Shown here piece after piece: positions 943-9,321 of a DNA stretch of 9,321 bases. Source of the stretch: a virus (lineage: Duplodnaviria > Heunggongvirae > Uroviricota > Caudoviricetes); the IMG/VR virus record IMGVR_UViG_2695420859_000017; one strand, written 5' to 3'. Numbering within the stretch: position 1 is the first letter of the stretch; every line of letters begins with the position of its first letter. The position numbers and the translations under genes were made by a program. A model generated the notes under the pieces. That model did no database searches. It saw only the letters and a program-made list of their open reading frames with translations, and was not told the origin of the DNA.

Positions 943-2715
943 ATGACCATCACCACAGACACCACTCTTTTACACGACCCGCGTCGTCAGGCGGCGCTGC
1001 TGTACTGGCAGGGGTTTTCCGTGCCGCAGATTGCCGCCATGTTGCAGATGAAACGCCCGACGGTGCAGAGCTGGAAACAGCGCGACGGCTGGGACAGCGT
1101 TGCCCCCATCAGCCGTGTCGAAATGAGCCTGGAAGCGCGGCTGACCCAGCTCATCATCAAACCGCAGAAAACCGGCGGTGACTTCAAGGAAATTGACCTG
1201 CTCGGACGCCAGATTGAACGACTGGCACGGGTAAACCGCTACAGTCAGACCGGCAACGAGGCAGACCTTAATCCGAACGTCGCTAACCGCAACAAAGGCG
1301 AGCGTCGCAAACCGAAAAAGAATTTTTTCAGTGACGAAGCCATCGAAAAGCTGGAGCAGATTTTCTTTGAGCAGTCTTTCGACTATCAGTTGCACTGGTA
1401 TCGCGCCGGGCTTGAGCACCGCATCCGCGATATACTGAAATCCCGCCAGATTGGCGCAACGTTTTATTTTTCCCGCGAGGCGCTGCTGCGCGCCCTGAAA
1501 ACCGGCCATAACCAGATTTTTCTGTCGGCCAGTAAAACGCAGGCGTATGTGTTCCGCGAATACATCATCGCCTTTGCCCGTCTGGTTGACGTTGACCTGA
1601 CCGGTGACCCGATTGTCCTGGGCAATAACGGCGCAAAACTAATTTTTCTCGGCACCAACTCCAACACCGCGCAGAGCCATAACGGCGACCTGTACGTCGA
1701 CGAGATTTTCTGGATCCCGAATTTTCAGGTACTGCGTAAGGTGGCATCAGGTATGGCCTCACAGAGTCACCTGCGCTCGACCTATTTCTCCACCCCGTCC
1801 ACGCTGGCGCACGACGCCTACCCGTTCTGGTCAGGTGAACTGTTCAACCGGGGACGCGCCAGCGCCGCCGAACGCGTGGAAATCGACGTCAGTCATAACG
1901 CCCTTGCCGGTGGTCTTCTCTGTGCGGACGGCCAGTGGCGGCAGATTGTCACCATTGAGGATGCCCTGAAAGGTGGCTGCACACTGTTCGACATTGAGCA
2001 GCTCAAACGTGAAAACAGCGCCGACGATTTTAAAAACCTGTTCATGTGTGAATTTGTTGACGACAAGGCGTCGGTGTTCCCGTTCGAGGAGCTGCAACGC
2101 TGCATGGTCGACACGCTGGAAGAATGGGAAGACTATGCGCCGTTTGCCGCCAATCCGTTCGGCTCACGTCCGGTATGGATTGGTTACGACCCGTCACACC
2201 GTGGCGACAGTGCCGGATGCGTGGTGCTGGCACCGCCGGTGGTGGCCGGTGGCAAATTCAGAATACTTGAGCGTCACCAGTGGAAAGGCATGGACTTTGC
2301 CACCCAGGCTGAATCCATCCGCAAACTCACCGAAAAATACAACGTCGAATACATCGGAATTGATGCCACCGGCCTCGGTGTCGGCGTGTTCCAGCTCGTT
2401 CGCTCGTTCTATCCCGCCGCGCGCGATATCCGCTACACGCCGGAAATGAAAACCGCAATGGTGCTCAAGGCAAAAGACGTTATTCGCCGTGGCTGTCTGG
2501 AATATGACGTCAGCGCCACCGACATCACCAGCTCGTTTATGGCTATCCGCAAGACCATGACCAGCAGCGGACGCAGCGCCACCTATGAGGCCAGCCGCAG
2601 CGAGGAAGCCAGCCACGCCGACCTCGCCTGGGCGACCATGCACGCCCTGTTAAATGAGCCACTCACCGCCGGTATCAGCACCCCGCTGACATCCACCATT
2701 CTGGAGTTTTACTGA
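943..2715 (+). CDS. P: Terminase large (ATPase) subunit GpP
   Basis: 590-codon ORF beginning MTITTDTTLLHDPRRQAALLYWQGFSVPQIAAMLQMKRPTVQSWKQRDGWD, recognised as P2-family GpP. ATG at 943 follows GAGG at 933..936; the ORF-track start at 913 is an upstream TTG and less likely. Stop TGA overlaps the next ATG (ATGA at 2715..2718). Confidence 0.9.
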   Translation: MTITTDTTLLHDPRRQAALLYWQGFSVPQIAAMLQMKRPTVQSWKQRDGWDSVAPISRVEMSLEARLTQLIIKPQKTGGDFKEIDLLGRQIERLARVNRYSQTGNEADLNPNVANRNKGERRKPKKNFFSDEAIEKLEQIFFEQSFDYQLHWYRAGLEHRIRDILKSRQIGATFYFSREALLRALKTGHNQIFLSASKTQAYVFREYIIAFARLVDVDLTGDPIVLGNNGAKLIFLGTNSNTAQSHNGDLYVDEIFWIPNFQVLRKVASGMASQSHLRSTYFSTPSTLAHDAYPFWSGELFNRGRASAAERVEIDVSHNALAGGLLCADGQWRQIVTIEDALKGGCTLFDIEQLKRENSADDFKNLFMCEFVDDKASVFPFEELQRCMVDTLEEWEDYAPFAANPFGSRPVWIGYDPSHRGDSAGCVVLAPPVVAGGKFRILERHQWKGMDFATQAESIRKLTEKYNVEYIGIDATGLGVGVFQLVRSFYPAARDIRYTPEMKTAMVLKAKDVIRRGCLEYDVSATDITSSFMAIRKTMTSSGRSATYEASRSEEASHADLAWATMHALLNEPLTAGISTPLTSTILEFY

Positions 2716-3872
2716 TGAGCAAGAAAAAAGGGAAAACACCGCAACCTGCGGCAAAAACAATGATCGCCAGCGCCCCGAAAATGGAGGCATTCACCTTTGG
2801 CGAGCCGGTACCGGTACTCGACCGCCGTGACATTCTTGATTACGTCGAATGCATCAGTAACGGCAGATGGTATGAGCCACCGGTCAGCTTTACCGGTCTG
2901 GCAAAAAGCCTGCGTGCCGCCGTGCATCACAGCTCCCCGATTTACGTCAAACGCAATATTCTGGCCTCGACATTTATCCCGCATCCGTGGCTTTCACAAC
3001 AGGATTTCAGCCGCTTTGTGCTGGATTTTCTGGTGTTCGGTAATGCGTTTCTGGAAAAGCGTTACAGCACCACCGGTAAGGTCATCAGACTGGAAACCTC
3101 ACCGGCAAAATATACCCGCCGTGGTGTGGAAGAGGATGTTTACTGGTGGGTGCCGTCCTTCAACGAGCCGACAGCCTTCACGCCCGGCTCCGTGTTTCAC
3201 CTGCTGGAGCCGGATATTAATCAGGAGCTGTACGGCCTGCCGGAATATCTCAGCGCCCTTAATTCTGCCTGGCTGAATGAGTCGGCCACGCTGTTTCGCC
3301 GCAAGTATTACGAAAACGGTGCTCATGCCGGATATATCATGTACGTCACTGATGCCGTGCAGGATCGCAACGATATCGAAATGCTTCGCGAAAACATGGT
3401 TAAGTCGAAAGGCCGCAACAACTTTAAAAATCTGTTTCTCTATGCCCCACAGGGGAAAGCCGACGGCATTAAAATTATCCCGCTCAGTGAAGTGGCAACG
3501 AAGGACGATTTTTTTAATATCAAAAAAGCCAGCGCCGCAGACCTGCTGGACGCGCACCGCATCCCTTTTCAGTTGATGGGCGGCAAGCCGGAGAACGTCG
3601 GGTCGCTGGGTGATATTGAGAAAGTGGCAAAGGTCTTTGTACGCCGTGGCTGTCTGGAATATGACGTCAGCGCCACCGACATCACCAGCTCGTTTATGGC
3701 TATCCGCAAGACCATGACCAGCAGCGGACGCAGCGCCACCTATGAGGCCAGCCGCAGCGAGGAAGCCAGCCACGCCGACCTCGCCTGGGCGACCATGCAC
3801 GCCCTGTTAAATGAGCCACTCACCGCCGGTATCAGCACCCCGCTGACATCCACCATTCTGGAGTTTTACTGA
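2715..3872 (+). pseudogene. Chimeric ORF: portal (GpQ) N-terminal ~309 codons fused in frame to a duplicated terminase C-terminal 76 codons
   Basis: Residues 1 to ~309 match the full portal copy at 4916..5935. From about nt 3642 the sequence shows no differences on visual comparison from terminase 2485..2715 (RRGCLEYDVSATDITSSFMAIRK...STILEFY), ending at a second copy of the P-stop/Q-start overlap. Confidence 0.55.
3642..3872 (+). repeat. Duplicate copy of the terminase 3' end (equals 2485..2715)
   Basis: Visual base-by-base comparison of 3642..3872 with 2485..2715 found no differences, including the terminal tactgATGagc junction. Confidence 0.8.
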
Positions 3873-4271
3873 TGAGCAAGAAAAAAGGGAAAACACCGCA
3901 ACCTGCGGCAAAAAAAATGACCGCCAGCACCCCGAAAATGGAGGCATTCACCTTTGGCGAGCCGGTGCCGGTACTCGACCGCCGTGACATTCTGGATTAC
4001 GTCGAATGCATCAGTAACGGCAGATGGTATGAGCCACCGGTCAGCTTTACCGGTCTGGCAAAAAGCCTGCGTGCTGCCGTGCATCACAGCTCACCGATTT
4101 ACGTCAAACGCAATATTCTGGCGTCGACATTTATCCCGCATCCGTGGCTTTCCCAGCAGGATTTCAGCCGCTTTGTGCTGGATTTTCTGGTGTTCGGTAA
4201 TGCGTTTCTGGAAAAGCGTTACAGCACCACCGGTAAAGTTATCAGGCTGGAAACCTCACCGGCAAAATATA
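3872..4271 (+). pseudogene. Portal (GpQ) 5' fragment, ~133 codons, diverged allele
   Basis: Begins MSKKKGKTPQPAAKKMTASTPKMEAF and tracks the portal to ...ETSPAKY. It differs from the other two copies by scattered single-base changes (KTMIASAP becomes KKMTASTP, plus apparently synonymous changes). After ~4271 the portal frame runs into unrelated sequence and stops at 4471. Confidence 0.55.
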
Positions 4272-4916
4272 TCGGTGTTCCCGTTCGAGGAGCTGCAACG
4301 CTGCATGGTCGACACGCTGGAAGAATGGGAAGACTATGCACCCTTTGCCGCCAATCCGTTCGGCTCCCGCCCGGTATGGATTGGTTACGACCCGTCACAC
4401 CGTGGCGACAGCGCCGGATGCGTGGTGCTGGCACCGCCGGTGGTGGCCGGTGGCAAATTCAGAATACTTGAGCGTCACCAGTGGAAAGGCATGGACTTTG
4501 CCACCCAGGCGGAATCCATCCGCAAACTCACCGAAAAATACAACGTCGAATACATCGGTATTGATGCCACCGGCCTCGGTGTCGGCGTGTTCCAGCTCGT
4601 GCGCTCGTTCTATCCTGCCGCGCGCGACATCCGCTACACGCCGGAAATGAAAACCGCAATGGTGCTCAAGGCAAAAGACGTTATCCGCCGTGGCTGTCTG
4701 GAATACGACGTCAGCGCCACCGACATCACCAGCTCGTTTATGGCTATCCGTAAGACCATGACCAGCAGCGGACGCAGCGCCACCTATGAGGCCAGCCGCA
4801 GCGAGGAAGCCAGCCACGCCGACCTCGCCTGGGCGACCATGCACGCCCTGTTAAATGAGCCACTCACCGCCGGTATCAGCACCCCGCTGACATCCACCAT
4901 TCTGGAGTTTTACTGA
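4272..4916 (+). pseudogene. Terminase (GpP) 3' fragment, ~214 codons, diverged allele, out of frame with the preceding portal fragment
   Basis: 4272..4916 corresponds to terminase 2071..2715 (VFPFEELQRCMVDTLEEWEDYAPFAANPF ... STILEFY) with several apparently synonymous single-base differences. It lies in a different frame from the portal fragment upstream; the ORF-track entry 3954..4916 is this frame reading backwards by chance. Confidence 0.55.
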
Positions 4917-5935
4917 TGAGCAAGAAAAAAGGGAAAACACCGCAACCTGCGGCAAAAACAATGATCGCCAGCGCCCCGAAAATGGAGGCATTCACCTTTG
5001 GCGAGCCGGTACCGGTACTCGACCGCCGTGACATTCTTGATTACGTCGAATGCATCAGTAACGGCAGATGGTATGAGCCACCGGTCAGCTTTACCGGTCT
5101 GGCAAAAAGCCTGCGTGCCGCCGTGCATCACAGCTCCCCGATTTACGTCAAACGCAATATTCTGGCCTCGACATTTATCCCGCATCCGTGGCTTTCACAA
5201 CAGGATTTCAGCCGCTTTGTGCTGGATTTTCTGGTGTTCGGTAATGCGTTTCTGGAAAAGCGTTACAGCACCACCGGTAAGGTCATCAGACTGGAAACCT
5301 CACCGGCAAAATATACCCGCCGTGGTGTGGAAGAGGATGTTTACTGGTGGGTGCCGTCCTTCAACGAGCCGACAGCCTTCGCGCCCGGCTCCGTGTTTCA
5401 CCTGCTGGAGCCGGATATTAATCAGGAACTGTACGGCCTGCCGGAATATCTCAGCGCCCTTAACTCTGCCTGGCTGAATGAGTCGGCCACGCTGTTCCGC
5501 CGCAAGTATTACGAAAATGGCGCACATGCCGGATACATCATGTACGTCACTGATGCCGTGCAGGACCGCAACGATATCGAAATGCTTCGCGAAAACATGG
5601 TCAAGTCGAAAGGCCGCAACAACTTTAAAAATCTGTTTCTCTATGCCCCACAGGGAAAAGCCGACGGCATTAAAATTATCCCGCTCAGTGAAGTGGCGAC
5701 GAAGGACGATTTTTTTAATATCAAAAAAGCCAGCGCGGAAGATCTAATGAGTGCCCATCGAGTCCCCCCGCAAATGATGGGGATGATGCCTAATAATGCG
5801 GGAGGATTTGGCGATGTAGTTAAAGCGGCTAAAGTTTTTGTCAGGAATGAGTTAGGGCATCTACAATCGCGAATGAAGGAATTGAACTCATGGATAGGTG
5901 AAACAGTTATAACATTTAACAATTACTCGTTATAA
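4916..5935 (+). CDS. Q: Portal protein GpQ, full length (339 aa), with a diverged AT-rich 3' end
   Basis: ORF starting MSKKKGKTPQPAAKTMIASAPKMEAFTFGEPVPVLDRRDILDYVECISNGRWYEPP, recognised as the P2-family portal. ATG overlaps the stop of the preceding terminase-derived segment. It is the only copy with a portal-type C-terminus and stop. Confidence 0.85.
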   Translation: MSKKKGKTPQPAAKTMIASAPKMEAFTFGEPVPVLDRRDILDYVECISNGRWYEPPVSFTGLAKSLRAAVHHSSPIYVKRNILASTFIPHPWLSQQDFSRFVLDFLVFGNAFLEKRYSTTGKVIRLETSPAKYTRRGVEEDVYWWVPSFNEPTAFAPGSVFHLLEPDINQELYGLPEYLSALNSAWLNESATLFRRKYYENGAHAGYIMYVTDAVQDRNDIEMLRENMVKSKGRNNFKNLFLYAPQGKADGIKIIPLSEVATKDDFFNIKKASAEDLMSAHRVPPQMMGMMPNNAGGFGDVVKAAKVFVRNELGHLQSRMKELNSWIGETVITFNNYSL

Positions 5936-5970: not shown

Positions 5971-6588
5971 TCAAGCAGATAGGCAAAACGTTTCTGTTTG
6001 CCCCAAGTGTTCAAACACAGTAATCGATGTTACTTTTCCGGCACTTATTTTGTTAAGGAACTTCAATATTTGTTGAGGCTCCTCCATGACTGCTGTTTTC
6101 TTGATTATAAATCCCTCAAGATTTTTCAAGCTGTATCGCTGACTTGAGTTCTCAAGAGCAGCAATCATTGCCGAACTGCGCATATCTCTATGTCCACTAG
6201 CTCTACAAACGACAGCATAATTTAAATTAAGCTCTACAAAATTTTGCCTTGTCAACTCTGGAAGGTGTTTACATACAAAATGAAATAAAGTCGTAACACC
6301 TTCATGTATTTTCAACCTTATATCATCCTTTTGTGAACGTCCTTCTTTAAATTCAATGAAGTACAATTTATCTTCATATAAAAATAAAGCATCCGGTGAT
6401 TTTTCTTTAAACTCACGCTTATAAACAGGCGAGCAATTTAACACCGTATCATAGTTAAAGCCCTTCGAATCACAAATAATAAAATTCCGAGCCCCTGCAT
6501 CATTGTAGCTTAATCCGGTTACATCAACCATTGAATCAGGGTATACTTCACACAGTTTTCTAAAAACAAGTTCCTCATTAGAAATCAT
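5971..6588 (-). CDS. Hypothetical 205-aa protein, second gene of the cargo operon; family not recognised; possible PD-(D/E)xK-like nuclease motifs
   Basis: ATG at 6586..6588 is preceded by AGGAG (reverse complement of 6596..6600) at 7-nt spacing and overlaps the upstream gene by 11 nt (ATGATTTCTAA). Strongly AT-rich. Contains FIICD (res 36-40) and LFLYEDK / FIEFK (res 68-81), which could be PD-(D/E)xK motifs II and III; this is inference only. Confidence 0.7.
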   Translation of the reverse strand: MISNEELVFRKLCEVYPDSMVDVTGLSYNDAGARNFIICDSKGFNYDTVLNCSPVYKREFKEKSPDALFLYEDKLYFIEFKEGRSQKDDIRLKIHEGVTTLFHFVCKHLPELTRQNFVELNLNYAVVCRASGHRDMRSSAMIAALENSSQRYSLKNLEGFIIKKTAVMEEPQQILKFLNKISAGKVTSITVFEHLGQTETFCLSA

Positions 6589-7906
6589 CCAAATACTCCT
6601 GATTCAATTCTTTTAATGGTGATGCCAAAAGATTAATTGCATATGCAACATTATCAGTAATATCAACAAAAGATGTAAACTCTTCCCCAGGGAATCGCTC
6701 GCTTATATAGAACCGATTTTCAATCCCAATTTTATCGCTATAATGTTTAAGAGCATCAATAATATACGGGCTATGTGTTGTAATTATTATATCAACCCCC
6801 ATAGACACTAACTCACAAATAATCTCAGCATAGAAAACCTGCCATTTTGGATGTAAGTTCACCTCTGGCTCATCAATAATCAGTAACGAGTTATCTACTG
6901 CTGCCCCGCACTTAACAAGCATATCAAGAATACCTAAAGACTTTATTCCTGACGCAATATTACCCGATGTGACTTTATAGCCTTGCTTCTCTAGAAAAAA
7001 ATCATTCTTTTCAATATCATAAACCACTTCACCACAGAAAGTAGCATTGATTTTGTTAGATATACGCAGTGACTCTTTTAAAAATGAGCCATCATCAAAA
7101 ATATCCGAATGCACAAATAAATTATAAACTGAATCGCTTAATTTTATTGATAGATCTTTCACATGCAATGGAACAGTTAGACGTCCTGATTCACCATTAC
7201 TATCAAATAAAGTTTTAGCAAAACGAACCAAATTATGAAATTGCATAATACTTGGAGAGTCAACATAGGTTGCGTCGACATATCCTAAGCCATCAGTATA
7301 ATCAAATTGTGATATACCATCTTTAGTCCATTTAATATCAATTAACTGACTAACACCATCAACAACTTCCAGAGATGCTTTAACTGGATTTTGATTACCC
7401 TTCTGAATAATTTCGCCTCTAAATTCAGAGTAAAAGGCCTTACGCAGAGCACGGTTGATAGCAGATAGCTCATCATCTGGCTCAAGCATTATATCTCTGA
7501 TTTTTCTTATATCAGAGAGTACAGAATCAGCCATCAATTCTGGAAGAAGCCCTTCCTCAATCAAATTATATAGATAACTCTCTCTCTCAGCCAAAGTTTT
7601 AGAGATATCTATTTTTAGAGAGGCATAAAACTTTCTTGGATTGAATAACTCTCTAATTTCCGGCGTAGCAGCAATATTAATCCTCCTACGCAGATTAAAA
7701 TATATTTTCTCTACGATAGATGTAATTCTATCCTCTTTGTCTTCTTCTAAATCCTCTTGATAACGAGATATCGCCTTTACCATTGAAAACAATATTTTCC
7801 CTACGGTACTCTTCCCCGTATCATTTTCACCAGTTATGACAGTTAAACCACCAACTGAAACATCAGCTTCTGCAATAGTTCCAAAATTATTAATTTTTAT
7901 ACGCAT
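6578..7906 (-). CDS. OLD/ABC-family (AAA_15/AAA_21-like) ATPase, 442 aa, with no Toprim or other nuclease domain
   Basis: N-terminal Walker A GENDTGKST (nt 7805..7831), C-terminal Walker B LLIIDEPE (nt 6863..6886) and H-loop TTHSP (nt 6767..6781), with ~300 residues between the Walker motifs. This layout is typical of OLD/GajA/AriA/PtuA-type ATPases. Spot counts of 60-nt lines give roughly 27-30% GC against about 60% in the structural genes. Confidence 0.8.
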   Translation of the reverse strand: MRIKINNFGTIAEADVSVGGLTVITGENDTGKSTVGKILFSMVKAISRYQEDLEEDKEDRITSIVEKIYFNLRRRINIAATPEIRELFNPRKFYASLKIDISKTLAERESYLYNLIEEGLLPELMADSVLSDIRKIRDIMLEPDDELSAINRALRKAFYSEFRGEIIQKGNQNPVKASLEVVDGVSQLIDIKWTKDGISQFDYTDGLGYVDATYVDSPSIMQFHNLVRFAKTLFDSNGESGRLTVPLHVKDLSIKLSDSVYNLFVHSDIFDDGSFLKESLRISNKINATFCGEVVYDIEKNDFFLEKQGYKVTSGNIASGIKSLGILDMLVKCGAAVDNSLLIIDEPEVNLHPKWQVFYAEIICELVSMGVDIIITTHSPYIIDALKHYSDKIGIENRFYISERFPGEEFTSFVDITDNVAYAINLLASPLKELNQEYLDDF

Positions 7907-7946
7907 AAACTATCTCACTGTACGCCAGATATCCAACCTTATGAAT

Positions 7947-7975
7947 ACTTTAGCATATTTCCAAAAAGATGACAC
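7947..7975 (-). promoter_or_regulatory. Candidate sigma70 promoter for the cargo operon (GTGTCA-N17-TAAAGT with a TG extended -10)
   Basis: Read on the minus strand between cos and the ATPase start codon. A 4/6 match at -35 and TGnTAAAGT at -10 would leave a ~40-nt 5' UTR. Pattern match by eye only. Confidence 0.25.
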
Positions 7976-7999
7976 TGGTGGTTGCAGGCCTCGCGCGCA

Positions 8000-8018
8000 G
8001 TGCTTTCCCCGCCTCGCC
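8000..8018 (-). other. cos: cos site: 19-nt cohesive-end sequence identical to P2 (GGCGAGGCGGGGAAAGCAC on the minus strand)
   Basis: Reverse complement of 8000..8018 is GGCGAGGCGGGGAAAGCAC, followed by CTGCGCGC, matching my recollection of the P2 left end. It sits in a GC-rich block, in the expected neighbourhood of the portal gene. Confidence 0.75.
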
Positions 8019-8112
8019 CGCCCGCTTCACGGGGCGGTTTTAATGCAGTTGCATAGATACTATGGATCCGCACCAGTCCTGACCGCACGCAGCCTGAACG
8101 GACATCCCCAGC

Positions 8113-8141
8113 GCATGCAAAAACATTCACTGGTTGCATGC
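8113..8141. other. Inverted repeat GCATGCAA-N13-TTGCATGC followed by CTTTTT
   Basis: Seen directly, ~100 bp from cos. Could be a protein-binding site or a weak terminator. Confidence 0.2.
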
Positions 8142-8302
8142 ATAGCTTTTTAAGTACGCCATACCGCAACTGTACATTTTTAAGCAATTGGCAACTTTAA
8201 AAAATTTACATTGCTTTCAAGACCTTATCATCCGTAGTCTCTGTTTTTTACTTTGAGCTACATCAATAAAATCTCAAACATGTTTAATGCAAAGCCCTTG
8301 TT

Positions 8303-8356
8303 ACACAACATAGAATGTATGTCTAGAAACAACGACATACTATATGTTGTGTTTTT
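8303..8356 (+). other. Long imperfect hairpin (arms ACACAACATAGAATGTATGTC / GACATACTATATGTTGTGT, 10-nt loop) followed by a T-run; terminator-like or sRNA 3' end
   Basis: Seen directly: 10-bp and 7-bp perfect stem segments separated by a small internal loop, then TTTTT at 8352..8356. An A-tract is lacking on the other side, so orientation is plus. Confidence 0.4.
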
Positions 8357-8418
8357 CCGGCTCTCTGTTCGGTGATATGCCAAATCACTTTGCGTTTAAA
8401 CAGAGCATTATTTCAGGG

Positions 8419-8433
8419 CAAGACTTCGCTCAA
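8419..8433 (+). repeat. 15-bp direct repeat CAAGACTTCGCTCAA, copy 1
   Basis: Exact 15-mer found again at 8683..8697; the two copies bracket the small ORF and its terminator. Confidence 0.5.
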
Positions 8434-8496
8434 AAGTCATTCCACCTAAGAAGCGCATATACCGGTGGAAGTTGCCCTCTACTTACAGGAGGCAAT

Positions 8497-8610
8497 ATGA
8501 AGAAATGCTATTACTGCATTCTCGTTCTGGCCCTCTTTGGCTATCCAAACGGTAGTCCGAGTGGTTTGTCAGTAAACGTCAGTAATATCAATGTCAGCAT
8601 TATGCTTTAA
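8497..8610 (+). CDS. Small hydrophobic peptide, 37 aa (MKKCYYCILVLALFGYPNGSPSGLSVNVSNINVSIML); function unknown
   Basis: ATG at 8497 is preceded by a consensus AGGAGG at 8487..8492 (4-nt spacing). Stop at 8608..8610 is followed 13 nt later by a strong intrinsic terminator. The N-terminus is KK followed by a ~13-residue hydrophobic stretch. Short length keeps confidence low. Confidence 0.35.
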   Translation: MKKCYYCILVLALFGYPNGSPSGLSVNVSNINVSIML

Positions 8611-8622
8611 TATGCTTCAAAC

Positions 8623-8652
8623 AAAAAAACCACCTGCCAGGGTGGTTTTTTT
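8623..8652. terminator. Rho-independent terminator, bidirectional form (AAAAAAACCACC-TGCCAG-GGTGGTTTTTTT)
   Basis: Seen directly: perfect GC-containing stem with a 6-nt loop, A-tract upstream and T7 downstream. Confidence 0.8.
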
Positions 8653-8682
8653 GCGCCCATCATCAATACGATGAAAGACTGA

Positions 8683-8697
8683 CAAGACTTCGCTCAA
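8683..8697 (+). repeat. 15-bp direct repeat CAAGACTTCGCTCAA, copy 2
   Basis: Identical to 8419..8433; AAGACT-like motifs also occur at 8675..8680 and 8696..8700. Confidence 0.5.
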
Positions 8698-8912
8698 GAC
8701 GAATTATGCGTCGACATAAGGTTACCCGCAATGATTTTATTAGACTAAATGGATGGCCTTTTATGACCCGGATCAAACGGCTGTCCTTACCGACATGCTA
8801 GTCACTCAATAGCATTTAGCCTTCTAATTCAGCATGCTATTGACCTTCTGCTGCCCCATAACTGCTCCGCATAAGCCATTCAATGCCATATCAAATCACG
8901 TTGTGTTTTTAC

Positions 8913-9321
8913 TCAAATGGGTAACGAGAACCCCGGCCACTCATCAGCAACCGGATACGTGAATTTTTTCCCGTCATAATTTACGGTCGCGCCACGCGCC
9001 AGCGCCTCAAGCTCCCATCGTTGCGGCCTGATACCGTTCTGAGCGAGGTCAACGCGGATACGGGTAATTTGCAATCGTTCAGACCTGGTCAGTCTGGCAG
9101 ATGGTGCAATTTCATGCGGTTTTAACGGGATTCCGTTTCTTTGCTGACGATTTGGTGTTCTCAGTCCGTGTTTTAATGCGCCCCTGAGCACCATCACTAC
9201 CTCCGGGTCACTCCATTCGATAACACCGTCATCTACCAGATTAAGCACTGCTGCGGCGTGCTCAGAAGGTGTGGGAGCCGGTAACGAAGTATCACCACCG
9301 GTGAGCTTTCCACAGTTATTG
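8913..9321 (-). CDS. Phage protein, 3' portion only (gene starts beyond the window end); probably the last gene of the early/replication operon
   Basis: The minus-strand frame is open from the window edge (…TGGDTSLPAPTPSEHAAAVLNLVDDGVIEWSDPEV…) to TGA at 8913..8915. The ORF-track start at 9248 is an internal GTG. GC content is backbone-like. Product assignment is positional inference only. Confidence 0.55.
   Translation of the reverse strand, partial: NNCGKLTGGDTSLPAPTPSEHAAAVLNLVDDGVIEWSDPEVVMVLRGALKHGLRTPNRQQRNGIPLKPHEIAPSARLTRSERLQITRIRVDLAQNGIRPQRWELEALARGATVNYDGKKFTYPVADEWPGFSLPI

Follow-up and report, generated by a model that had tools for sequence, protein, structure and literature searches.

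What does the long, imperfect inverted repeat at 8303-8356 do in a part of a prophage where nothing has been annotated? The DNA considered here, a stretch of 9,321 nucleotides referred to below as the window, belongs to a P2-like (Peduovirus) prophage of E. coli, with stretches 100% identical to chromosomes such as NZ_CP025849. About 1 kb of it (7907-8912), containing the repeat, is devoid of RefSeq annotation; the repeat and what follows it lie between cos and the 3' end (8913) of the replication gene A, which is carried by the minus strand. From the sequence alone, it was originally predicted that this stem followed by a T-run, with no plus-strand gene between it and cos, could form the 3' end of a small RNA originating near cos, act as an attenuator for a small open reading frame (ORF) located downstream, or be a protein-binding palindrome. 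The absence of a plus-strand gene between cos and the repeat is correct, and the small ORF is present and merits attention. Among the three proposals, support is found for the last one: the arms of the repeat coincide with the outer half-sites of two putative boxes for the repressor NrdR, and the repeat is probably an NrdR operator made of tandem boxes, within a captured host nrdDG promoter that would drive the small ORF and be accompanied by a small RNA (sRNA). This promoter, the ORF and the sRNA gene are referred to below as the module (Table 1).

Considered as a fold, the inverted repeat is real, with 17 pairs, 10 in the outer arms and 7 in the inner arms, a 4x2 internal loop between them and a terminal loop of 10 nt; G-C accounts for 6 of the 17 pairs. 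The minimum free energy is -21.0 kcal/mol on the plus strand (z = -4.6) and -21.2 kcal/mol on the minus strand (z = -4.3), and none of 200 shuffled sequences folds as well. The T-run noticed after the stem does exist, as TTTTT at 8352-8356, but its first T is paired, leaving only four unpaired T before CC. A Rho-independent terminator likewise has a stem followed by T residues; it is however expected to combine a G+C-rich unbroken stem and a short loop with an immediately adjoining tract of about 6-8 U, and to be kept in relatives with its U-tract, whereas the T-tract here is short, the stem is AU-rich, interrupted and not conserved, and the whole hairpin spans the predicted transcription start. 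A simple terminator scan of the window did not list the hairpin, but little weight can be given to this result since the same scan missed the clear terminator at 8623-8652.

Table 1. Positions of the features discussed in the text (numbering of the window; sites without a strand have an empty cell).
Feature	Position	Strand	Remarks
P2 cos 19-mer	8000-8018	-	Exact match
Block homologous to the host nrdDG promoter region	8171-8353	+	Local alignment, BLAST
FNR site 2 homologue, TTGAGCTACATCAA	8253-8266		Identical to the E. coli nrdDG site; centred 64.5 bp upstream of the predicted start
FNR site 1 homologue, TTAATGCAAAGCCC	8284-8297		Alignment to nrdDG site 1 (-33.5)
Hairpin and T-run	8303-8356	+	Putative outer NrdR half-sites plus allele-specific inner stem
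Outer arms, ACACAACATA / TATGTTGTGT	8303-8312 / 8343-8352		10 pairs
Putative NrdR box 1, ACACAACATAGAATGT	8303-8318		9.2 bits, second-best match in the window; overlaps the -10
-10 hexamer, TAGAAT	8311-8316	+	Aligned with the nrdDG -10, TAAAAT
Inner arms, GTATGTC / GACATAC	8317-8323 / 8334-8340		7 pairs
Predicted transcription start	8324 (+/- 2 nt)	+	From the nrdDG register
Structured 5' UTR, ~174 nt	8324-8496	+	Fold z, covariation
Putative NrdR box 2, ATACTATATGTTGTGT	8337-8352		18.5 bits, best match in the window; 6/6 key positions
Predicted sRNA target in the leader	8416-8433 (core CAAGACTTCGCTCAA, 8419-8433)	+	Duplex prediction; 63 nt upstream of the AUG
Shine-Dalgarno, AGGAGG	8487-8492	+	Precedes the 37-aa ORF
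Small ORF, 37 aa, MKKCYYCILVLALFGYPNGSPSGLSVNVSNINVSIML	8497-8610	+	Open in all three clades
Bidirectional intrinsic terminator, A7-CCACC-TGCCAG-GGTGG-T7	8623-8652		Perfect inverted repeat; common to mRNA and sRNA
Predicted sRNA, ~73 nt	8696 to 8623	-	Single-stranded 5' seed UGAGCGAAGUCUUGUCA, central hairpin, terminator
Predicted sRNA promoter	8703-8731	-	-35 TTGCGG (8731-8726), 17-bp spacer, -10 CATAAT (8708-8703)

The surroundings of the repeat are those of a host promoter. A block ending right after NrdR box 2, where the 3' arm of the repeat also ends, is homologous to the region upstream of nrdD in E. coli K-12, with 69% identity (73-76% for the alleles of sister phages) and one identical run of 29 nt. 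The distant match returned by BLAST falls in the Salmonella intergenic region upstream of nrdD, and the corresponding region of E. coli is matched too. In the published 54-mer of nrdDG, FNR site 2 (TTGAGCTACATCAA) is located at -64.5 and FNR site 1 (TTGATGCAAAGCAC) at -33.5 (PMC10425943). Both sites have a homologue in the window, in the same tandem arrangement and with the -10 in register, the distance between the -10 and the start of FNR site 1 being 27 nt in every homologue. The homologue of FNR site 2 is the sole sequence within one mismatch of TTGAT-N4-ATCAA over the 9.3 kb, while that of FNR site 1 is weakened in the window allele (TTAAT) as compared with the sister alleles and the plasmid homologues, which have TTGATGCAAA. 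Because the FNR spacing is the same, the register of host nrdDG can be carried over, and transcription is predicted to start near 8324, inside the loop of the hairpin; a transcript initiated there therefore could not form the hairpin. We infer from this architecture an anaerobic, FNR-dependent transcription from the nrdDG-like promoter.

NrdR boxes are 16-bp partial palindromes with conserved C4, A6, A8, T9, T11 and G13, usually spaced by 15-16 bp (PMC12176259, PMC13584703). The whole window was scanned with a matrix built from ten published boxes (PMC13584703; consensus acaCwAtATaTwGtgt), which score 8.9-16.9 bits when left out of it, and the two best matches are those flanking the predicted start. 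Box 2 outscores every host box, and it shares ATATGTTGT with the host box 2. Box 1, at the low end of the scores of published boxes, has four of the six key positions, its right half being devoid of T11 and G13. Taken together, the pair reaches 27.7 bits, as compared with a null maximum of 9.2 +/- 2.5 and with none of 300 random sequences of like composition attaining this sum. Three of the four half-sites are perfect. The consensus half-site, ACACAACAT, is present both in box 1, on its left side, and in box 2, on its right side, which explains the perfect 10-bp inverted repeat. More generally, paired palindromic operator boxes can mimic a terminator hairpin.

Regarding the anatomy expected of such an operator, the boxes are separated by 18 bp in the window allele and 16 bp in the sister alleles, in which box 1 scores 7.6 bits. 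Both spacers are within the range considered here (15-16 bp, with 14-18 or 24-27 bp tolerated in vitro), and synthetic box pairs with 15-18 bp spacers are bound by E. coli NrdR with a KD of 45-91 nM in vitro (PMC12051234). The boxes would also overlap the polymerase binding site or the start of the promoter, box 1 lying on the -10 and box 2 past the predicted start, at +14 to +29. On the other hand, the 18-bp spacer lies at the limit of tolerance, and the region is too similar throughout the phage clade to reveal box-specific selection. Nor is this a control region upstream of a ribonucleotide-reductase operon: the next gene is the 37-aa ORF, and neither the window nor the prophage region inspected contains a ribonucleotide-reductase gene.

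The resemblance with the nrdDG promoter of E. coli and Salmonella thus extends over ~180 bp, with an identical FNR site 2, FNR site 1 and -10 in the same register, and two 16-bp boxes around the start. The module differs from it by its location on a P2-like prophage and on plasmids, by driving the 37-aa ORF instead of nrdDG, by ~10 extra bp between the -10 and box 2, by a box 1 that has a degenerate right half and lies 9 bp further downstream, over the -10, and by a box spacer of 16 or 18 bp instead of 15 bp. In the mechanism proposed, the inverted repeat would act as DNA and not as an RNA hairpin, providing an operator for the host NrdR, the dATP/ATP-sensing repressor of ribonucleotide-reductase genes. 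Transcription would begin between the boxes, activated by FNR when oxygen is missing, and it would be blocked by dATP/ATP-loaded NrdR sitting on box 1, over the -10, and on box 2. To our knowledge, repression by NrdR is considered to be confined almost entirely to ribonucleotide-reductase operons.

Homologues of the module (8202-8709), with 72-76% identity, can be found on ~390 large plasmids, IncF in every record examined, mostly from Klebsiella but also from Enterobacter, Citrobacter, Salmonella and Leclercia. Plasmids of Citrobacter, Salmonella and Leclercia have the boxes at the positions of host nrdD, with the same 15-bp spacer, and the variants of their box 2 (CCCCAACAGATAGGGG, CCCCTACAGGTAGGGG and ACCCAATAAGTAGTAT) all retain C4, A6, A8, T11 and G13. 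In the Enterobacter plasmid, the spacer is longer by one helical turn (25 bp), a length that also belongs to a tolerated class. The phage clade has the downstream box 2 in common with the latter plasmid, together with a new box 1 located nine bp further down, over the -10. In most Klebsiella plasmids, both boxes have decayed while the promoter, the ORF and the sRNA are kept, and NrdR control would thus be dispensable for the module. As far as these alignments can tell, the operator is an ancestral feature, repeatedly remodelled and sometimes dispensable.

Such losses raise the possibility that the promoter is in use but that the operator of the phages is itself a decaying relic, no longer usefully bound by NrdR, in which case the palindrome would now be functionless. 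The low score of box 1 in the window allele, lower still in the sister alleles, its lack of T11 and G13, the spacer stretched to 18 bp and the Klebsiella plasmids can all be read in this way, and G13 is critical in the context of nrdEF, where its mutation in one box abolished the binding of E. coli NrdR (PMC13584703). However, decay is hardly expected to leave a box 2 scoring above every host box and three perfect half-sites out of four; spacers of 15-18 bp are tolerated by E. coli NrdR (PMC12051234); and, after the old position was lost, the phage lineage has acquired a new box 1, 16 bp from box 2, which looks rebuilt. A relic is for these reasons considered unlikely. If the boxes work as an operator, they would provide a case of natural operator rebuilding, in which one promoter has box spacers of 15, 16, 18 or 25 bp depending on the lineage, matching the spacer tolerance published for NrdR in vitro.

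The putative NrdR operator would account for the outer arms, and the rest of the stem has a history of its own. The sister phage allele retains the same outer 10-bp arms. It has, however, ATGCA--ACC in place of the 5' inner arm and TTGTT in place of the T-run, and a 2-nt deletion and three substitutions leave it without the inner stem of the window allele. The sister allele folds at -11.1 kcal/mol (z = -1.2), no better than shuffled sequence. The plasmid homologues, taken as outgroups, have neither the 2-nt insertion nor the inner stem and the T-run, and it is because they also lack this insertion that the long stem can be regarded as derived in the window allele. With respect to conservation, the palindrome has therefore two parts, outer arms that are invariant among phage alleles and a long stem with T-run that is not conserved; no compensatory change is seen in the hairpin between alleles. 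On this comparison, the extra length of the stem and the T-run of the window allele is a derived by-product of the 2-nt insertion and of clustered substitutions. The changes at 8313-8324, namely three substitutions and the insertion within 8 nt, are responsible for the seven additional pairs formed with the opposite arm, and this cluster looks like a quasipalindrome template-switch mutation. A candidate site for the P2 late-promoter activator Ogr (TGT-N12-ACA at 8320-8337) is present in the window allele only and was dropped.

These observations weigh heavily on any role of the repeat in RNA. It was envisaged that the hairpin belongs to the leader of a longer transcript, where it would attenuate or stabilise the expression of the small ORF, from a start served for instance by TTTACA (8206-8211) and TATCAT (8227-8232). 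The fold is strong in the window allele, this -35/-10-like pair was noticed upstream by reading the sequence, and the 3' arm also makes a 5'-terminal stem-loop in the predicted mRNA. Nevertheless, the two hexamers are 15 bp apart and unlisted by the promoter scan, the corresponding sequence of host nrdDG is not the promoter, and both the poor fold of the sister allele with no compensatory changes and the unconserved T-run argue against a selected RNA structure, which makes a leader hairpin quite improbable. An attenuator in the sense of the original prediction fares no better, since the 5' arm would remain untranscribed with a start at ~8324 and the stem is not conserved.

It is harder still to believe that the boxes serve as a sink, by which a phage replicating to high copy number would titrate the scarce NrdR, de-repress the host reductase genes and raise the supply of dNTPs; the strength of box 2 and the position of the element beside gene A, in a phage genome that replicates, would suit such a role, but the boxes always accompany a complete promoter, ORF and sRNA, and the same module is found on IncF plasmids, with Klebsiella copies devoid of boxes. 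Finally, an intrinsic terminator forming the 3' end of a small RNA from the cos-proximal region is extremely unlikely in spite of the stem and T residues on the plus strand, given the four unpaired T, the AU-rich interrupted stem with its 10-nt loop, the lack of inner stem and T-run in the sister allele and in all plasmid homologues, a scan finding no promoter between cos and 8303, and the G+C-rich terminator-like hairpin already present at 8018-8037. Conservation, anatomy and the predicted start site are thus the reasons why both the terminator and the attenuator readings fail.

Downstream of the putative NrdR operator, the nrdDG-like promoter is predicted to produce an mRNA of ~330 nt, consisting of a structured leader of 174 nt, a hydrophobic peptide of 37 aa and an end at the terminator 8623-8652. 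The fold of this mRNA (8324-8660) has a z of -4.7, and the stems of the leader covary across clades. The ORF has 37-39 codons in all three clades, with substitutions biased to third codon positions and stops in the other frames, i.e., it is a small hydrophobic ORF conserved as coding sequence, as expected of a type I toxin. The peptide has no match in Pfam or NCBIfam, and a search of 5.8 billion proteins with a padded peptide query returned two unnamed clusters. A direct repeat of 30 nt with 73% identity was also observed between a conserved leader stem (8368-8397) and the sequence preceding the stop codon of gene A (8879-8908), which may be due to chance.

The second transcript predicted for the module is a convergent sRNA, whose promoter has an invariant -10 and a nearly invariant -35 across clades, with unrelated spacer sequences. 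The terminator that would be common to both RNAs hardly varies among all the homologues (the Enterobacter plasmid has one substitution in the loop), and in the central hairpin of the sRNA 8 of 21 pairs are changed on both sides with pairing kept. The 15-nt sequence CAAGACTTCGCTCAA occurs as a direct repeat at 8419 and 8683, the second copy lying, on the minus strand, just downstream of the sRNA promoter. Through its 5' end, the sRNA would pair with a segment of the leader located 63 nt ahead of the AUG, the seed-leader duplex being predicted to contain 16-17 bp and the target to lie 62-64 nt before the AUG in all clades. Three compensatory changes have occurred in seed and target in the Citrobacter clade, with pairing retained; cognate duplexes are predicted at -29 to -39 kcal/mol, while the sRNA of the diverged clade would form only -14 to -18 kcal/mol with the leaders of the other clades. 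This covariation represents a single clade split, and concerted evolution of the direct repeat could mimic it.

In a permissive Rfam scan of 7900-9000, the matches obtained (RNAI, Phe leader and OrzO-P) are weak, driven by the terminator and far below threshold, and nothing reaches the gathering score in the three plasmid homologues submitted to Rfam. The terminator core (8624-8651) has 27-28 nt identical to a sequence on ~300 small E. coli plasmids, which explains the weak RNAI matches. Nothing relevant could be found in the literature on the seed sequence, or on NrdR in connection with toxin-antitoxin systems, prophages or plasmids.

The arrangement of an mRNA with a convergent sRNA resembles a type I toxin-antitoxin pair. 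Type I pairs with short leader complementarity comprise tisB/istR-1, zorO/orzO, shoB/ohsC, dinQ/agrB and timP/timR, and the promoters of tisB and dinQ are under LexA control, i.e., gated by stress. As in these pairs, the module has a small hydrophobic ORF behind a long structured leader, carriage by prophages and plasmids, a separate sRNA of ~70 nt with a 5' seed predicted to pair over 16-17 bp with the leader, far upstream of the ribosome binding site, and a putatively stress-gated promoter for the toxin-like gene; the pairing of sRNA and mRNA is in the present case a prediction. Unlike those pairs, in which the sRNA gene is upstream and divergent, the sRNA gene of the module is downstream and convergent with one bidirectional terminator, the promoter of the toxin-like gene is of FNR/NrdR type, the peptide matches no known toxin family and the RNAs match no Rfam family. 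By analogy only, the 37-aa peptide could be toxic.

The nearest in design is TimP/TimR (PMC7667032). TimP (RyfA) of E. coli and Salmonella is likewise a peptide of ~40 aa with a basic N-terminus, a C-x-C-I motif, a hydrophobic stretch similar to a signal sequence and a polar tail, and its sRNA is aimed at the leader, although the gene layout of the module is different. Homology with TimP was rejected: BLASTP gave nothing, hhalign gave 6% probability over 11 columns, and there is no Rfam match to RyfA. On the plasmid pHvKP51-Vir-P15 (locus L044, 1818-1955), an annotated dinQ type I toxin gene is located ~1 kb from the homologous module, and the two may belong to a cluster of small toxin genes.

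Going further, it may be speculated that nucleotide supply and oxygen gate the module, which would serve as a type I toxin-antitoxin or abortive-infection device, a reading we hold to be rather doubtful. In such a device, dATP-loaded NrdR would hold toxin transcription off and FNR would be needed to switch it on; a fall of dATP under the anaerobic conditions of the gut, to which phage infection or replication stress could lead, would free a membrane-active peptide unless the sRNA blocks it. On this reading, the small ORF would be the first NrdR-controlled non-reductase gene on a mobile element. Whatever the activity of the peptide, mobile elements have acquired a complete control region of nrdDG type, with two FNR sites and a putative NrdR box pair, and have fused it to an unannotated ORF and sRNA. 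If the boxes work, dNTP status and oxygen would be linked to a toxin-like gene in a phage defence hotspot.

The region gpA-cos-gpQ, to which the unannotated ~1 kb corresponds, has indeed been described as a defence hotspot of P2 (PMC9122126). To the left of cos are found the gene of an AAA-ATPase and that of a 205-aa partner, followed by the portal and terminase genes. The ATPase (442 aa, ABC/AAA-type, minus-strand region 5971-7906) matches the PADLOC models HEC-02A, PD-T4-4_A and AriA-like, while the partner gene, which overlaps that of the ATPase, has no PADLOC match; together they are probably a two-gene defence cargo of the cos-proximal hotspot. Other prophages with the same nrdD-like module have a different cargo, or none, at this position. 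Abutting the cos 19-mer, the terminator-like hairpin at 8018-8037 (plus strand) mentioned above is CCGCCCGCTTCACGGGGCGG followed by TTTT. A cos-related packaging role or a replication origin was dropped as a function of the module, which is also found on plasmids devoid of cos and gene A.

The 750-bp block adjoining gene A is present in 158 of 5426 complete E. coli genomes (~3%), as two main alleles ~14% apart, and also in isolated phages. A pattern scan of IMG/VR retrieved ~30 near-identical phage loci, again with two alleles only. A search of species-representative genomes with the back-translated ORF pattern gave two unrelated matches, the module being absent from these representatives.

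Elsewhere in the window, segments from the 3' end of the terminase gene and the 5' end of the portal gene (2071-2768, 3626-3925 and 4272-4969) are repeated two to three times with 97-99% identity and start-to-start spacings of 1157 and 1044 bp, yielding extra portal-like ORFs at 2715-3872, 3872-4471 and 4916-5935. The prophage of NZ_CP025849, otherwise identical, has a single terminase gene and a single portal gene. Either a real tandem rearrangement or the assembly of several P2-like prophages into one mosaic sequence could account for these repeats.

A last observation concerns the numbering of host records. In NZ_CP119441, the P2 replication endonuclease gene occupies coordinates 1-2277, i.e., the very start of the record, and the module is numbered 2290-3040 in many complete E. 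coli chromosomes. In these E. coli records, the prophage gene A was apparently mistaken for a replication-initiator gene by start-rotation software.
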